From: Candidatus Multivorans sp.
Lineage (GTDB): Bacteria; Acidobacteriota; Thermoanaerobaculia; Multivoradales; Multivoraceae
Length of the DNA: 64,000 nt
Direction: 5' to 3'
Assembly (NCBI GenBank): GCA_965247095.1
Contig: OZ251997.1
Coordinates: 1,024,001 to 1,088,000 of the forward strand
Made by a program: the position numbers and the translations under genes. Shown piece after piece: positions 29,801-35,190 of the stretch (position 1 is the first letter of the stretch; each line of letters opens with the position of its first letter). The notes under the pieces are model-generated. The model did no database searches and had not been told where the DNA came from. It saw only the letters and a program-made list of their open reading frames with translations.

Positions 29801-32800
29801 GTGGGTGCGGCGAGATCCCGCGGACCCCTGCCCAGCCTGCGGCACTACTGGCGCTCGAACGTCGCCGTGATGCTGACCGCGGCGGTGGCGGCGTCCGTTC
29901 TCACCGGCGCGCTGATCGTAGGCGACTCGGTCCGCGGCAGCCTGCGCGACCTGACCCTGGACCGTCTTGGCGGCATCGATCATGCGCTGCTCGGCGCGGG
30001 CTTTTTCCGCGAGGGGTTGCGGGATGAGCTGATGAATGACGCCGAGTTTGCCGCGCGCTACGGCCCGGTGTCGGCGGCGATCGTGATGCAGGGCAGCGTG
30101 GTGCAGCCGGAGAGCGGCCGGCGGGCGGCCCGGGTCAATGTCCAGGGCATCGACGACGGCTTCGCCGCCTTCTTCCCGGGCATGGAGGAAGCCCTCGACC
30201 TGTCCCGGCGGGACGGTCAACTGTTCGCGTCGCTGGCGATCAACCGGTCGCTTGCCTCAGCGCTCGCCGTTGAGCCGGGCGACTCCGTCGTGCTCTACCT
30301 GGAGCGGCCGAGCGAAGCACCGCGGGCAAGCCTGATGGGCGAGAGAGACCCCGCCGACCAGTTGGAGAGCGTCCGGCTGAGCGTGGTCTCGGTGCTGGAG
30401 GACGAAGGTCCGGGCCGCTTCCAGCTCGCCCCGCACCAGAGCCAGCCTCTCGTCGGCTATCTCAGCCTGCGCGACCTGCAGCGGGAGCTTGATCGCCGGA
30501 ACCTGGTGAACTCGCTGCTGGTCGGTGAGCGGGCGGATGGCGATACCGGGGCGCCCTCCGATCCCGACGCCGCGGCAGCCGAGGTCGAACGCCTCATCCG
30601 TCGCCACGCCGAGGTGGCCGACTTCGGACTCAGGCTCGCGGCGACGGACGAGCATCTCCTGGTCACCACATCCCAGATCATTCTCGGCGCCGAGTTGGCA
30701 GGGGAGGTCGACGCCGCGGCGTCGGAGCGCGGCGCGGAGACGATGGAGATCTCGACCTACCTGGCCAACCGATCGGCCGCCGAGAATGGCGCCGCCGCTC
30801 CCTATTCGACGATCGCGGCGCTGAATGTGGCGCGGGCGGGTGAACTGGGGACCCTGCGACTGACGGACGGCCGGCCGGCACCGGCTCTGGGGCCGGGTGA
30901 GGTCCTGGTCAACTCGTTCCTGGCCGAGGATCTGGCGGTCGCGGCCGGCGACCGCCTGGCGATCGACTACTTCCAGCTCGGCGACCGGGAGCAGTTGCTC
31001 GAGCAGACCGCCTGGACCACAGTGGCGGGGGTGGTCGAGATGACGGGTTGGGGGGCCGACCGGACGTTGACGCCGGATTTCCCGGGGGTCGCCGACGCGG
31101 ACAACATGAGCGACTGGGATCCGACCTTCCCGGTCGACCTGAGTCGAATCCGGGACCTGGACGAGGCCTACTGGGACGAGTACCGCGCCACTCCCAAGCT
31201 GTTTGTCAGCCTCGACTACGGCGCTGAACTCTGGTCGAGCCGTTTCGGTCTTCTGACCTCGCTGCGGCTGCTGCCGCCGGCCGGCACAACACCCGAGCAG
31301 CTCCAGGCAACGCTCGAGGAGGTGTTGCCGGACAGGATCGCCCTCCACGCGGCTGGCCTCGCGGTCGAGCCGGTCAAAGCCACGGGCTTGCGCGGCGCTT
31401 CGGGCGCCACGGACTTCGGCGGCCTCTTCGTGGGCTTCAGCCTGTTTCTCATCGTGTCGGCGGCGCTCCTGGTGGGGCTCTTCTTTCGGCTGGGGACGGA
31501 GAGCCGCGCGAGCGAAATGGGCCTGCTGCTGGCACTCGGCTACGGCATAAAACGCGTCCGGCGCCGGTTCCTGGCCGAGGGAGCGCTGCTGGGCGGTGTG
31601 GGTGTGCTGCTCGGCCTCGGAGGCGCGGTGCTCTACGCCGGTGCGATGATGGCCGCGCTCAGGACCCTGTGGCGATCCGCGGTCGGCTCGAGCCACCTGT
31701 ATCTGCACGTCGAGCCCCTGACCCTGGCCATGGGCGGCGCGGCGTCCGTTCTGGTCGTGCTGTTCGCGATCCGGGGCGCGGTGGGCCGGCTTGCCGCCGT
31801 TTCACCGATCCGGCTGCTGCGCGGCGAGACCTCCGACCAGCCGTCAGCCGCCGGGATGCCGGGCCGGCGCGCGCGCTGGACCGCGAGCGTGGGCGGCGGG
31901 CTGGCTGCGGTTCTGCTCGGTGGCTCCGCGGTGGCGCCGGCGTCCACTGCGGCCTACCTGTTCTTCGGCGGCGGGGCCTGTCTCCTGATCGCCGGGCTGG
32001 CGGGGTTCACTCTGTGGCTGCGGCGGCGCCCGGCAGCGCCGCTCGAGAGCTGGTCGCTGCGCGCCGGTTCGCGGATGGCGGCGGCGAACGCTTCTCTCAA
32101 CCCGGGCCGGAGCCTGCTCTGCGCGGCGCTGGTGGCCAGCGCGTCGTTCGTGATCGTGGCGGTGGGCGCCTACGGCCTGCGCTTCGGCGAGGAAACGCGG
32201 GACCTGGACTCGGGGGCCGGCGGCTTCGACCTGGTCGCGGAGGCGGATGTCTCGATTCTCGCCGACCTGAGCAGCGTGGACGGTCGTTTCGATTTGGGTT
32301 TCGGGGAAGAGGCCTCCGAGCTCATCGGACAAAGCCAGATCGTCGCCTTCCGCACCGTGCCCGGGGACGACATCAGTTGCCTGAACCTGTTCCAGCCGGA
32401 GCGTCCACGGCTGCTCGGAGCGCCGCCGGAACTGATCGAGCGCGGCGGCTTCCGCTTCCAGTCGCTCGTAGATGAGGCCGGGGAGGATCCCTGGAGGCTG
32501 CTGGAGCAGGATCTCGGTCCGGGAGTCATCCCCGCGATCGGCGACTTCAACTCGGTCATGTGGATTCTGCACTCGGGCCTGGGCCAGGGGATCGAAATCG
32601 AGACGGAGCGCGGCGAGACGGTCGAACTGCGGCTGGTCGGGCTCCTGCGAAAGAGCGTGTTCCAGAGCGAACTCGTGATCTCGGGAGCGAACCTAGCGAA
32701 GCACTTCCCGAGCCGGACCGGCGCCTCCTACTTCCTGTTGCGGACACCGCCCGGCGAGCAGGACCGCACGATGCAGGAGCTCGAGCGAACGCTGGGCGGC

Positions 32801-33241
32801 TTCGGCTTCGATGCGGTCCCCACGGCCCAACGGTTGCAGGCCTTCCAGGCGGTGGAGAACACCTATCTCGGCACGTTCCAGACCCTGGGCGGACTCGGCC
32901 TCCTGCTCGGCACGCTGGGACTGGCGGTCGTCCTGCTCCGGAACCTGCTGGAGCGCCGGGGAGAACTTGCCACCCTGCAGGCGATCGGCTTCTGGCGGCG
33001 GGCCCTCGCCTGGCTCGTTGTGGCCGAGAACGGGCTCGTCCTGACCGCGGGCGTAGCCGTCGGCGCCGCGTCGGCGCTGGTCGCGGTGAGCCCGCACCTG
33101 CTCGGCGGACACGCACTCGTGCCGTGGCTCTCCCTCGGCCTGACTCTGGTTCTGGTGATGGCCGCTGGAACCCTGGCCAGCCTGGCCGCGGTTCGTCGGG
33201 TGACGCGGGAGGAGCTGTTGCCTGCGCTCCGGGGGAGCTAG
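29801..33241 (+). CDS. Large FtsX/MacB-like ABC permease (duplicated permease with large periplasmic domains)
   Basis: Two R..E.g.L.ALG repeats with TM clusters and two large soluble domains. 1146 aa. Confidence 0.88.
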   Translation: MGAARSRGPLPSLRHYWRSNVAVMLTAAVAASVLTGALIVGDSVRGSLRDLTLDRLGGIDHALLGAGFFREGLRDELMNDAEFAARYGPVSAAIVMQGSVVQPESGRRAARVNVQGIDDGFAAFFPGMEEALDLSRRDGQLFASLAINRSLASALAVEPGDSVVLYLERPSEAPRASLMGERDPADQLESVRLSVVSVLEDEGPGRFQLAPHQSQPLVGYLSLRDLQRELDRRNLVNSLLVGERADGDTGAPSDPDAAAAEVERLIRRHAEVADFGLRLAATDEHLLVTTSQIILGAELAGEVDAAASERGAETMEISTYLANRSAAENGAAAPYSTIAALNVARAGELGTLRLTDGRPAPALGPGEVLVNSFLAEDLAVAAGDRLAIDYFQLGDREQLLEQTAWTTVAGVVEMTGWGADRTLTPDFPGVADADNMSDWDPTFPVDLSRIRDLDEAYWDEYRATPKLFVSLDYGAELWSSRFGLLTSLRLLPPAGTTPEQLQATLEEVLPDRIALHAAGLAVEPVKATGLRGASGATDFGGLFVGFSLFLIVSAALLVGLFFRLGTESRASEMGLLLALGYGIKRVRRRFLAEGALLGGVGVLLGLGGAVLYAGAMMAALRTLWRSAVGSSHLYLHVEPLTLAMGGAASVLVVLFAIRGAVGRLAAVSPIRLLRGETSDQPSAAGMPGRRARWTASVGGGLAAVLLGGSAVAPASTAAYLFFGGGACLLIAGLAGFTLWLRRRPAAPLESWSLRAGSRMAAANASLNPGRSLLCAALVASASFVIVAVGAYGLRFGEETRDLDSGAGGFDLVAEADVSILADLSSVDGRFDLGFGEEASELIGQSQIVAFRTVPGDDISCLNLFQPERPRLLGAPPELIERGGFRFQSLVDEAGEDPWRLLEQDLGPGVIPAIGDFNSVMWILHSGLGQGIEIETERGETVELRLVGLLRKSVFQSELVISGANLAKHFPSRTGASYFLLRTPPGEQDRTMQELERTLGGFGFDAVPTAQRLQAFQAVENTYLGTFQTLGGLGLLLGTLGLAVVLLRNLLERRGELATLQAIGFWRRALAWLVVAENGLVLTAGVAVGAASALVAVSPHLLGGHALVPWLSLGLTLVLVMAAGTLASLAAVRRVTREELLPALRGS

Positions 33242-33323
33242 CGCGGCAGTATCGTCGCCGCTTCGCGGCGCGTTTCTTCTCGGAAGCCGGCGGGGACGCC
33301 GGCGCACCCAGTTTCTGCCGCGC
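33241..33323. repeat. Inverted-repeat-bounded hairpin containing a REP-like unit, immediately left of IS110
   Basis: GCGCGGCAG (33241-33249) and CTGCCGCGC (33315-33323) enclose GCCGGCGGGGACGCCGGCGCACCCAG. Confidence 0.55.
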
Positions 33324-33380
33324 AGGCTTGCATGGAACAAAGTAGCGAAACGGCGGTGGTTCAAGAGGATGCGGGGGTTT

Positions 33381-34700
33381 TCATGCGGCTTGTTCAACGG
33401 CCACGAGCTTCAGGTTGAGGCGTCTGGCCTGTCGCTGGAGGTTCTTGAGTTGGCGTTCGCGCCGGACGGCCTCCATTTCGGCGAGGTCGCGTTCGACGTA
33501 CTCTTCGCCGTGAGTGAGCATGGCGAAGATCGTGCGGCCGAGCTGGTGGGCGGTTGCCTTGACCGCCCTCGCGGTGTCCATGCGGTGCATTCGGCGTCGG
33601 TGGGATGCGCCGATGGCGGTCTTGCTGTTGCGGGCGGTGGTTGCGGCCATTCGCAGCGCCTGGCCGACCCGGTTGGTGTGTTGTCTGGGCTTGCCTTTGA
33701 GGCGTTTGTCGCCGCTGATGTTGGTCGGCGGAGCCAGACACAGCCACGAGCAGAAGTTGCCCTGCGAGGGAAACCGGGACAGGTCCGGGCCGATCTCAGC
33801 GGCAAACGTCAGCGCCGTTTCGACGCCAATGGTCGGGATGGCGACCAGGTCCACTCCGAGCATGCGGTGCAGCCGCTGGCGCAGGGCGTGCTCGCGGACC
33901 TTCGAGTCCGGCGGCGAAGCCTCCCCTGCGCCGTCCTCAGCCAGCTTGTCGAGTTCGGCGTCGATGCGCTCCTCGCACATCTCGATCTGGCCCTGCAGCA
34001 TGTCGTGGCGCGCCAGCGCCTGCCTGAGGGCGAACAGATGCTCGTCGCGCCAATTGCCCTCGAGACTCGCTGCGATCGTCGCCGCGCTCGCCTTGCACCG
34101 GCCGTCACGGTGGCGGGCCAGCACCTCGCCGTCCCGCTCGCCGGCGACGATCGCGCGCACGATGAGCTGGCCGGTCTTGCCCATGATGTCGCTGAGCACG
34201 TTGTCCAACTGCACGTTCATCTGCAGGAGCGCCTTCTGAACGTGCTGCACCGAACGGCTGCGGTCGCGGATCAACTGCCCGCGCTGACGCGTATAGGAAC
34301 GCAGCGGGCACAGCGCGTCCGGCGCACGAAACGCGCTCCGCAGCAACCCGTAGCTCATCAACTGCCGGATCCACTGACAGTCCAACACGTCGCTCTTGCG
34401 ACCGCTCACCTGCTTCGTCGCCTTCGGATTCACCAGGTAGACCTCGAAACCCGCTCGGTCGAGCACCTCGAACACCGGGATCCAGTACACGCCCGTGGAC
34501 TCCAACGCCACCTGCCGCACGCCGTGCGCCTCAAGCCACGACGCCATCGCCTCAAGATCGCATGTGAACGACCCGAAGCTGCACACCGGGCGCTCGAAAC
34601 GCGACGGGGCCACCGCCACGTAGTGCTTGCGCTTGCCCACGTCGATCCCCGCACAATCCGGGTGAACGACCTCCAGACTCTCCGCCTTCCTGCTCGCCAT
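33381..34700 (-). CDS. IS110 family DEDD transposase/recombinase
   Basis: AGIDVGK, ALESTGVYW and RKSDVLD (DEDD), plus C-terminal SWLCLAP..NISG with the conserved Ser. AGGAGG RBS before the ATG at 34700. Confidence 0.95.
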   Translation of the reverse strand: MASRKAESLEVVHPDCAGIDVGKRKHYVAVAPSRFERPVCSFGSFTCDLEAMASWLEAHGVRQVALESTGVYWIPVFEVLDRAGFEVYLVNPKATKQVSGRKSDVLDCQWIRQLMSYGLLRSAFRAPDALCPLRSYTRQRGQLIRDRSRSVQHVQKALLQMNVQLDNVLSDIMGKTGQLIVRAIVAGERDGEVLARHRDGRCKASAATIAASLEGNWRDEHLFALRQALARHDMLQGQIEMCEERIDAELDKLAEDGAGEASPPDSKVREHALRQRLHRMLGVDLVAIPTIGVETALTFAAEIGPDLSRFPSQGNFCSWLCLAPPTNISGDKRLKGKPRQHTNRVGQALRMAATTARNSKTAIGASHRRRMHRMDTARAVKATAHQLGRTIFAMLTHGEEYVERDLAEMEAVRRERQLKNLQRQARRLNLKLVAVEQAA

Positions 34701-34727
34701 CTCCAGCACCTCCTGTACCATTCAAAT

Positions 34728-34890
34728 GGTCGCGCTGGACAGAGACCGCGGCGGAAACGTCACTCTTGCATACGGGGTCGCGGCAAAAGCCGCGCCGCCA
34801 GCGTCAGAACGCCGATCACGGTCCGGGCCAAACTTGCATTGCGGGTGCGAACACACCAGTGCTTCGACGGCCTCGCTGCCCAGCGCGACC
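34728..34890 (-). ncRNA. Putative IS110 bridge RNA
   Basis: An 11-bp perfect closing stem (34728-34738 / 34880-34890) encloses two internal stem-loops. Each contains CTTGCAT (34765-34771 and 34833-34839), the same heptamer found at both IS junctions. Confidence 0.65.
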
Positions 34891-34971
34891 CAACTCTACG
34901 CCTCCTGCAACGACCGCAGAATCCACCACCCGTTCCCTGCGCGACAGCGCAGCGATACCGCTGTGGGTACT

Positions 34972-35066
34972 TGCATGGAACAAGCCCCTGGGAACGCGGG
35001 CATCCTGCCCGCATCCGGACGCCGCGTCGTTCCCTGCGCGCCAGCGCAGCGACCTCGCTGTCCCTA
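34972..35066. mobile_element. Putative non-autonomous IS110-derived mini-element A (95 bp) carrying a REP hairpin
   Basis: Flanked by CT (34970-71, 35067-68). It starts with the IS right-end motif TGCATGGAACAA and ends with a copy of the IS left-end motif GTTCCCTGCGCG.CAGCGCAGCGA...CGCTGT...TA. Confidence 0.55.
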
Positions 35067-35068
35067 CT

Positions 35069-35125
35069 TGCATGGAACAAGCCCTGGTCCCTGTGCGTCA
35101 GCGCGGCACGGACGCCGCGACTCGA
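35069..35125. mobile_element. Putative non-autonomous mini-element B (57 bp)
   Basis: 53/57 identical to the reverse complement of 44484-44540. Both copies start CT|TGCATGGAACAAGCC and are followed, after a 2-nt core, by CCTAG. Confidence 0.6.
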
Positions 35126-35190
35126 CACCTAGCCCGCATATTTTCCGGACGGTCTGGTCGGGGTCGGCCTGAGGGGTGAAGCGCAGCGCT

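Follow-up and report, generated by a model that had tools for sequence, protein, structure and literature searches.

Recombinases of the IS110 family of insertion sequences (IS) require a bridge RNA, as has been established experimentally (Durrant et al., 2024, PMC11208160; Siddiquee et al., 2024, PMC11187229). In IS621, this RNA has two internal loops of pseudo-symmetric design, a target loop and a donor loop, and each loop holds one guide per DNA strand, with the guides overlapping in a 2-nt core. Here we describe an IS110-family element of 1,643 bp in a 64,000-nt stretch of the genome of Candidatus Multivorans sp. (phylum Acidobacteriota; assembly GCA_965247095.1, contig OZ251997.1, positions 1,024,001 to 1,088,000; hereafter the window, numbered from its first letter). 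The element is an intact IS with a bridge RNA upstream of its recombinase gene, and the target guide of this RNA has very probably been rewritten to the heptamer at the element's own right end, so that the element homes to copies of that end.

Several features of the described systems are needed for the comparison. The loops of IS621 have their left guides, those for the bottom strand, on the 5' side (left target guide, A50-U58; left donor guide, A123-C130; Hiraizumi et al., 2024, PMC11208158) and their right guides, with handshake bases after them, on the 3' side; the core is CT (PMC11208158, PMC11208160). Each junction of the integrated element matches half of one loop and half of the other, and the excision complexes are X-shaped and less effective than the insertion complexes; the direction of bridge recombinases is thought to be set by the match between half-sites and loops together with the handshake bases (PMC13626964). 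The second relevant system is ISPpu9 of Pseudomonas putida KT2440, which recombines at an invariant AG, inserts into repetitive extragenic palindromic (REP) sequences and has conserved "A" and "B" boxes at its ends. Its companion, the miniature inverted-repeat transposable element (MITE) MITEPpu9, has the same ends, often adjoins the IS on its downstream side and undergoes excision in several modular combinations, and ISPpu9 circles form no hybrid promoter (Pares-Guillen et al., 2025, PMC12288879). An AG core and tandems of an IS with a MITE are thus already in print for ISPpu9; no loop-by-loop guide assignment was found in the parts of that article that were consulted. Natural reprogramming has also been described for the seekRNAs of ISEc11/ISXne4 and ISEc21/ISMch6 (PMC11187229), relatives that differ mainly in their guides and whose sites differ accordingly, as is the case here.

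The recombinase of the window element combines the DEDD domain (PF01548, DEDD_Tnp_IS110, E = 5.3e-25) with the Tnp domain (PF02371, Transposase_20, E = 2.7e-12), the same architecture as in IS621/ISEc21-type elements (PMC11208160, PMC11208158, PMC11187229). The resemblance to this type extends to the general layout, with the RNA encoded 5' of the gene, on the same strand, in the left non-coding end, and with a long left end (about 250 nt, 34722-34969, 5' of the gene) and a short right end (about 54 nt 3' of it). In element sense, the IS starts with TACCCACAGCGG and finishes with TTTGTTCCATGCAAG. Both junctions read TTGTTCCATGCAAG, followed on the left by TACCCAC (the element starts at 34969) and on the right by CCTGCGC (the flank begins at 33326); the AG core is assigned to the right end by convention, the two AG copies being indistinguishable as the element's own. 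A second full copy in the same genome (G000:C1:4033447-4035089) is 99% identical and has the same ends, and the reading frames of both copies are intact. All feature coordinates are collected in Table 1.

Table 1. Features of the IS110-family element and its surroundings in the window.
Feature	Position	Strand	Basis
Complete IS110-family element, 1,643 bp	33327..34969	-	Second near-identical copy with the same ends
Recombinase gene, 446 aa, DEDD/RuvC-like domain and Tnp domain	33381..34721	-	Open reading frame and Pfam matches
Left end, 38 nt (TACCCACAGCGG...GCAGGGAAC), common to IS and mini-elements	34932..34969	-	Nine identical genomic copies, each right after ATGCAAG
Right end, 14 nt (TTGTTCCATGCAAG)	33327..33340	-	Sole right-end stretch common to the IS copies and all mini-elements
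Bridge RNA, 163 nt	34728..34890	-	11-pair closing stem, target-binding hairpin, then stem with donor-binding hairpin
Loop 1, 5' side: GUCGAAG, right-target guide position	34862..34868	-	Family-wide complementarity to the right flank
Linker CACU after GUCGAAG	34858-34861	-	
Loop 1, 3' side: left-target guide AUGCAAG (5 nt and AG core)	34833..34839	-	Covariation with the left flank
UU after the loop-1 guide, handshake-like dinucleotide	34831-34832	-	Family-wide match to the element's first 2 nt
Loop 2, 5' side: UUCUGACGCU, right-donor guide position	34800..34809	-	Position only
Loop 2, 3' side: left-donor guide AUGCAAG, matching the element's right end	34765..34771	-	Covariation with the right end
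97-bp mini-element, head to tail with the IS	34970..35066	-	Diverged left end, hairpin repeat, 14-nt right end
59-bp mini-element REP-A (TCGAGTCGCGG...GGGACC...TTGTTCCATGCAAG)	35067..35125	-	After GCTAGGTG
Ancestral target, right half (CCTGCGCGGCAGAAACTGGGTGCGCC), within a hairpin repeat	33301..33326	-	Unoccupied sites in the genome

The bridge RNA was recognized by its fold, by its conservation upstream of related genes and by the agreement of its loops with the junctions. On the minus strand, the 163 nt between 34728 and 34890 reach a minimum free energy of -85.0 kcal/mol (z = -4.34; none of 200 dinucleotide shuffles folds as well) and form two stem-loops, each interrupted by an internal loop, on a long closing stem. 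This is a property of the core only, since the entire left end (34722-34975, 254 nt) folds undistinctively (z = -1.73). The consensus fold of nine homologues has 42 pairs, 14 of them with compensatory changes. An initial annotation of this DNA, made from the sequence, had proposed an 11-bp closing stem with two stem-loops, ATGCAAG on the 3' side of both loops, and two junctions that read the same in element sense; the consensus fold retains the 11 closing pairs, and the other two points were recovered as described. Of the AG/CT core proposed there, the AG held, as it closes the heptamer in 70 of the 72 distinct RNAs of the family in each loop, whereas the CT on the 5' side is not a conserved complement: the 5' sides read CAnU or CGCU across the family, and the final U alone is invariant. 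No Rfam model matched the bridge RNA in a search of that database; the one hit, to gntR-DTE on the other strand, scored 22.2 bits where the gathering score is 63.6 (E = 0.25) and was taken as chance.

Homologues were collected by a pattern scan of one genome per species, which yielded 590 relatives; 80 of these loci, with recombinases of 44-86% identity, were kept. A covariance model (R1) built from nine RNAs gave 82 matches in 78 of the 84 sources, all on the recombinase strand and directly upstream of the recombinase gene, with the window RNA at 164.7 bits; the initial annotation had called for such a model of the non-coding end. The six sources that R1 did not match were L032, which is 5'-truncated, L063, L064, L070, L071 and L085, and second matches at L054, L061, L078 and L062 precede a further copy of the element. 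On the draft assembly that holds L064, no match was found among the 150 scored of 1,244 candidates; in the genus to which this locus belongs, 13 of 201 genomes have a recombinase match at E <= 1e-80. R1 was also run on 13 of the 16 Pseudomonas loci (L133 in genome G140, L135 and L142 were left out) and matched 12, six with 55-58% identical recombinases at 77-101 bits (five of these at 97-101) and six with 43-45% identity at 29-36 bits.

Across the 72 distinct RNAs, the share of paired cells is 93.8%, compared with 69.3% in shuffles and 33-45% with slid partners, figures that carry the caveat of an alignment fitted to R1's own structure. Changes on both sides occur in 37 of the 42 pairs. Three pairs are near-constant G-U pairs (68/72, 70/72 and 72/72), which fit the sense strand only and therefore fix the strand.

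The loops of these RNAs vary together with the ends of the elements that carry them. The heptamer on the 3' side of loop 1 occurs within the 300 nt upstream in 44 of the 62 usable elements and in only 49 of 3632 mismatched pairs (1.3%), while that of loop 2 occurs no more than 250 nt after the gene in 53 of 59, against 53 of 2862 mismatched pairs (1.9%). The reverse assignments fail: the loop-2 heptamer is found upstream in 5/62 elements, and the loop-1 heptamer downstream in 4/59. When 8-mers are used in place of heptamers, the matches fall to 12/62 (loop 1, upstream) and 2/59 (loop 2, downstream), which defines the guide as 5 nt plus the AG core. The earlier suggestion that the loop heptamers are guides that co-vary with the junctions is thus borne out, at 44/62 left flanks and 53/59 right ends compared with 1-2% in controls.

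Directly after the loop-1 guide, two bases repeat the start of the element (its first 2 nt) in 34 of 46 cases (shuffled mean 9.8; 0/2000 as high); in its behaviour, this dinucleotide resembles the published handshake guide. The corresponding 2 nt of loop 2 equal the first two of the right flank in only 8 of 56, and 92 of 2000 shuffles are as high, which is weak. On the 5' side of loop 1, the first 7 nt are complementary to the right flank at a mean of 3.89/7 positions, compared with 3.03 in shuffles (0/2000 as high); the best cases are L079 and L084, both 7/7, and a variant in the related genome G024 described below, 7/7 where the flank is CCTGCGC. One or two extra RNA bases then precede the invariant U. 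A position-wise scan for complementarity between the 5' sides and the flanks gave no clean diagonal, and consequently no right-donor guide was assigned; it did pair position -5 of loop 1 with flank positions 1-2 (z = 4.0 and 3.0), and its loop-2 signals are scattered and look phylogenetic.

A close relative provides a natural experiment on the guides. Among 41 genomes searched (that of the window, G000, and 40 relatives), four have a recombinase match at E <= 1e-40. One of them, G024, which belongs to the same genus, carries 14 copies of an element whose recombinase is 86% identical. The 14 copies have different upstream sequences, all of which close in CTAGGAG before the element start TGTCCGCAGCG..., and all 14 terminate in GTTTGTTCCATGCAAG, followed mostly by nnTGCGC. 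Loop 1 of the G024 RNA is CUAGGAG where that of the window RNA is AUGCAAG, and loop 2 is AUGCAAG in both; the 5' side of loop 1 is GCGCAGG, the exact complement of CCTGCGC. The two 163-nt RNAs differ at 21 positions, nine of which fall in the approximately 15 guide columns. In G000, all nine left ends of the TACCCACAGCGG type (two IS and seven mini-elements, at seven separate loci) follow ATGCAAG, and none follows CTAGGAG. Taken together, the junctions of the two genomes indicate that loop 1 tracks the left flank and loop 2 the right end of the element.

Identical heptamers in both loops are rare, with three cases among the 72 distinct RNAs: the window element (ATGCAAG), L054 (ATGAAAG; recombinase 72% identical) and L060 (ATAGGAG; 59% identical). 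Head-to-tail junctions, in which the right-end heptamer is followed directly by a left-end start, occur at all three of these loci and at none of the other 43, for a total of 46 scorable loci. The L060 array has at least 10 units, with at least six mini-elements of 138 or 157 nt, the IS, and three more mini-elements of 138, 194 and 194 nt. At L054, two IS enclose a 252-bp unit, and at L061 an IS is directly followed by an IS. Such arrays are as expected if the target loop reads the right end of any family member. In a quick tree, for which support is given as Shimodaira-Hasegawa-like approximate likelihood ratio (SH-aLRT) values only, the three same-guide rows lie within one 10-row clade, and each has a different-guide sister; the window element is paired with L036, a CTAGGAG element (support 100), and L054 with L053 (support 99). 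The same-guide state therefore arose at least twice. L053 itself, which extends from the contig start to 122, with its left junction beyond the contig and its right end near 1510, has ATGAAAG in loop 1, i.e. the right-end heptamer of L054, and ATGCGAG in loop 2; judged from its sequence, its targets appear to be the ends of another member of the family.

The immediate surroundings of the window element show the same arrangement. In element sense, the order is flank GCTAGGTG, REP-A (35125-35067), the 97-bp element (35066-34970), the IS (34969-33327) and flank CCTGCGCGGCAGAAAC..., so that the IS lies behind a mini-element. The second full copy is flanked by REP-A (59 bp), behind which it lies, and by a 144-bp mini-element. 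The initial annotation had anticipated that the element would integrate at copies of its own end, which agrees with these two neighbourhoods, with the unchanged ends of the second copy, with the position of all nine window-type left ends after ATGCAAG and with the restriction of head-to-tail junctions to three same-guide lineages. Mini-elements of 97 and 144 bp combine the two ends of the IS, its first 38 nt (TACCCACAGCGG...GGGAAC) at the start and its last 14 nt at the finish. The last 7 nt of the 97-bp element in the window, whose left end has diverged, are the left target of the IS, and two closer copies of it are found at genome positions 3173045 and 3612172.

REP-A is present in 31 genomic copies with no more than two mismatches to a 29-mer (e.g. 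G000:C1:296241, 645429, 3258429), and its interior (GCGCTGACGCACAGGGAAC) is plainly homologous to the IS left end (GCGCTGTCGCGCAGGGAAC). The GTTCCATGCAAG motif has 44 genomic occurrences with at most one mismatch, most of them the 3' end of REP-A. Exact strings place REP-A after CTAGGAG in 18 copies and after ATGCAAG in two; if (C)TAGGAG is allowed, the former number is 18-20, and the two copies after ATGCAAG are in tandem. With a 40-nt left end finishing in GGGAAC, 5 nt, and the 14-nt right end TTGTTCCATGCAAG, REP-A has the build of a minimal non-autonomous IS110-type element, which may make it a MITE of this IS family and not a REP of the type associated with REP-associated tyrosine transposases (RAYTs). 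The genome also has 29 unoccupied CTAGGAG-nn-TGCGC sites (CTAGGAGnnTGCGC) behind unique sequence, which makes CTAGGAG a target and not part of an element. These empty sites, together with the CTAGGAG that precedes REP-A, define the edge of a hairpin repeat, CTAGGAG followed by nnTGCGC(GGCAGAA), as the ancestral target, with REP-A as a mini-element lodged there.

Compared with the described systems, the window clade mixes hallmarks of the IS110 and IS1111 groups. It has the two internal loops of IS621, with one guide per strand in each and an overlapping 2-nt core, and a 2-nt handshake-like extension after the 3'-side guide (PMC11208158, PMC11208160). Unlike in IS621, the core on the coding strand is AG rather than CT, and in both loops it is the 3' side that holds the guide with top-strand sense; the initial annotation had described the IS621 layout as opposite in this respect, which the published left guides on the 5' side confirm (PMC11208158). 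Read on the other strand, the layout of the window RNA is IS621-like with a CT core, as if the cassette of gene and RNA had been inverted relative to the ends. The order of the guides, with the top-strand complement 5' of the bottom-strand match, is that of the IS1111 seekRNAs of ISEc11, ISPa11 and ISKpn4 (PMC11187229). Subterminal inverted repeats are another IS1111 trait, with a published range of 7-17 bp (PMC11208160), compared with 5-11 bp in the window clade and with none, or 2-3 bp, in the IS621-like group. In the window IS, the left arm GGAAC closes the 38-nt left end and the right arm GTTCC is within the 14-nt right end. Inverted repeats are present in 38 of 38 elements at a fixed place (left arm at +29 to +38, right arm 5-10 nt in from the right end), with a longest match of 7.76 on average, versus 5.59 in shuffled pairings (0/500 as high). 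In contrast to IS1111, where the RNA is downstream in a long right end (PMC11187229), the long end here is the left one (about 250 nt), which holds the RNA upstream of the gene, and the right end has about 54 nt. It is this union of reversed guide order, subterminal repeats and upstream RNA that gives the clade its mixed character.

With ISPpu9 and MITEPpu9, the window family shares the AG core, hairpin-repeat targets, end boxes and non-autonomous mini-elements with the ends of the IS (PMC12288879). In the Pseudomonas genome G133, which has four copies, the three that were read have GUGGGAG in loop 1 and AUGAGAG in loop 2, two different, AG-ended guides that agree with their REP target. Their junctions read GTGGGAG, then the element, which ends in ATGAGAG, then (C/T)GAGCTTGCTC(G/A)CG, and empty sites reading GTGGGAG followed by CGAGCTTGCTCG lie nearby. 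Loci of this type are probably ISPpu9-like, a likeness drawn from the published description and not from the ISPpu9 sequence. Compared with the natural pairs ISEc11/ISXne4 and ISEc21/ISMch6 (PMC11187229), the window element is distinctive in that its new target is the family's own right end, which makes the left halves of target and donor identical. In searches of the IS110/IS1111 bridge-RNA literature, excluding the supplements of the 2024 survey, in which this clade may be listed, we found neither a reversed guide order together with an upstream RNA and subterminal repeats nor a self-end-targeting state with arrays.

These data suggest how the window element would work. The RNA would be transcribed, and the window copy would be active. 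Loop 1 is the target-binding loop; the AUGCA and AG of its 3' side have the top-strand sense of the left flank and would pair with the bottom strand. The two bases after this guide, which repeat the first two of the element, would serve in a handshake-like manner, and the 5' side would be a 7-nt complement of the right flank. Loop 2 is the donor-binding loop, with AUGCA and AG on its 3' side matching the right end of the element, and recombination would take place at the AG dinucleotide. In the window lineage, the right-end heptamer of the element itself has replaced CTAGGAG as the target guide; CTAGGAG, the left edge of the hairpin repeat, continues to serve as the guide in the 86%-identical relative. 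With this guide, the preferred site becomes any junction of a right end with a flank left by the IS or by its 59-, 97- or 144-bp derivatives, and new copies would land head to tail beside old ones.

Identity of the left target and the left donor would have a further consequence. For the guides that can be assigned, the integrated element would present a complete donor site at its left junction and a complete target site at its right one, and excision should therefore lose the mismatch handicap that it has in IS621; only the handshake bases would remain to bias direction. Furthermore, since the left flank repeats at least the last 14 nt of the right end, the integrated element would retain any junction promoter whose -35 box lies in this stretch.

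Several observations weigh against this interpretation. A scan of 34650-35150 for sigma-70 promoters and terminators found nothing, with no sigma-70 consensus at the left junction. In RNA run X21, a 424-nt contig covers 34703-34985 with 11 other letters and four gaps, which assign it to a relative, and in RNA run X22 a 243-nt contig covers 34660-34900, but RNA libraries can hold DNA; most bins over the recombinase gene are uncovered in the contigs of both runs, which carries no weight either way. The contigs of four runs contain no joint that matches an excised empty site or a circle. Only two full copies are present in G000. Kinship among the loci inflates all shuffle tests of guides and flanks. 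The exact heptamer is absent from 18/62 left flanks and 6/59 right ends, and the position-wise scan shows no diagonal of complementarity between the 5' side of loop 2 and the left end. Finally, GUCGAAG in the window fits its own right flank, CCTGCGC, at just 3.5-4 of 7 positions and none of the 28 GTTCCATGCAAG sites of the genome at more than 5/7. It differs from the 7-mer of the G024 relative at 4/7 positions, and the recurring pairs are the three core-proximal ones only (AAG with CTT).

Two joints that might have been excision products were rejected: 33308>35080 contains 27 foreign letters and comes from another locus, and 33341>34927 (RNA run X22, depth 3.7) looks like a mini-element of a relative. 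The 27 inserted letters, found in the contig joint of runs X1 and X3, are those of a cluster at G000:C1:3965935-3966003, where three GTTCCATGCGAG motifs in both orientations are placed within 70 nt beside REP-A; this cluster is possibly a remnant of an ATGCGAG-type relative.

Some of these weaknesses would be explained if loop 1 were a decayed or accidentally converted guide, for example by gene conversion from loop 2, and the element a dead end whose copies predate the change. The contrast between two full copies here and 14 in G024, the poor fit of the 5'-side guide of loop 1 to any available site and a 1-nt insertion in loop 1 of the window RNA relative to all other RNAs are what such decay might leave. 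Nevertheless, ATGCAAG precedes both full copies and all seven mini-elements with the left end of the window element, and CTAGGAG precedes none of them, which dates their insertion after the change of guide. The same state also recurs with other heptamers at L054 and L060, with large arrays, and the two intact, 99%-identical reading frames do not suggest decay; we regard this explanation as improbable. A folded leader that chiefly regulates translation of the recombinase in cis, as a 5' untranslated region (UTR), would in turn account for the structure, with the matches between loops and junctions reflecting shared ancestry of the ends and the leader. There is a precedent in ISPpu9, whose 5' UTR folds, inhibits translation and is opposed by an antisense RNA (PMC12288879), and the window RNA terminates 7 nt before the start codon region. 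What makes this account very improbable is that the heptamer of loop 1 changes with the flank, and the flank belongs to the host and not to the element (in G024, the upstream sequences differ among all 14 copies, yet each of them closes in CTAGGAG), and that recombinases of this family are experimentally RNA-dependent (PMC11208160, PMC11187229), although the two roles can coexist.

The arrays could also be the work of the host, through unequal crossing-over or replication slippage between shared ends, in which case the identical heptamers would be a consequence or a coincidence. Unequal exchange would give an array dominated by near-identical units, as the 138-nt units dominate L060, and the tandem duplication of MITEPpu9 has been published without a guide-based explanation (PMC12288879). 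However, units of 138, 157 and 194 nt are mixed with full IS copies, each bounded exactly where a right end meets a left end; the neighbours in the window are three different elements (59 bp, 97 bp and 1,643 bp); only the three same-guide lineages have head-to-tail junctions, with 0/43 elsewhere; and the nine window-type left ends after ATGCAAG in G000 are spread over seven separate loci. A host origin of the arrays thus seems unlikely, and homing of the element to its own family's right ends remains the preferred explanation.

A true left boundary after GGGAAC (34931), with the 38-nt stretch as a separate host repeat, was rejected because all relatives have a homologous stretch as their left end and the junction heptamer invariably comes before it. 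At the other end, about 40 nt between the stop codon and the terminal 15 nt (TTTGTTCCATGCAAG) are wholly different between the two otherwise 99%-identical IS copies (33341-33380 in the window versus G000:C1:4033461-4033503). The window version is found again in G024 at L032, and the other version resembles the 86% variant of G024; the presence of both versions in G024 suggests an exchange of right ends between variants. L032 (G024:C1:2127747-2132084) has a 94%-identical recombinase and has kept the right end, but its whole left end and bridge RNA are absent; homology begins about 20 nt 5' of the start codon. The interior of the 97-bp mini-element is a 32-nt hairpin repeat (CCGGATGCGGGCAGGATGCCCGCGTTCCCAGG, window 34987-35018), which has more than 30 identical copies scattered through the genome. 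An open reading frame of 1,146 aa with many predicted membrane segments (29801-33241, + strand) finishes 60 nt before the right-target half of the repeat, which places the insertion cluster in the 3' intergenic space of that gene. In a plasmid collection searched with the recombinase, 343 records were found, all below 60% identity and annotated just as "IS110 family transposase"; no IS name was obtained.

Bridge recombinases are being engineered as programmable tools for the insertion, excision and inversion of DNA. The window element offers a natural example of a pair of identical half-sites, with products that equal the substrates, and the outcome can be read directly from the genome, as head-to-tail arrays of the element and of its derivatives of 59 to 194 nt. 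With the G024 element, it forms a clean pair of naturally retargeted relatives, in which recombinases that are 86% identical have different loop-1 heptamers and 14/14 and 9/9 matching junctions. A bolder view, which we hold only tentatively and consider rather doubtful, is that of a direction-less, self-homing bridge recombinase whose insertion products are complete donor and target sites and which has repeatedly evolved to multiply at the ends of its kin. If true, excision, re-insertion and the capture of neighbouring mini-elements would all use fully matched complexes of loops and DNA, and the ends of kin would be a safe harbour for multiplication, a strategy that would have evolved repeatedly within one clade. 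A REP-like repeat family of 59 bp and about 31 copies would then have been seeded and mobilised by an RNA-guided recombinase and not by a RAYT. More generally, our results suggest that RNA-guided recombinases carry some families of short "REP-like" repeats as non-autonomous passengers.

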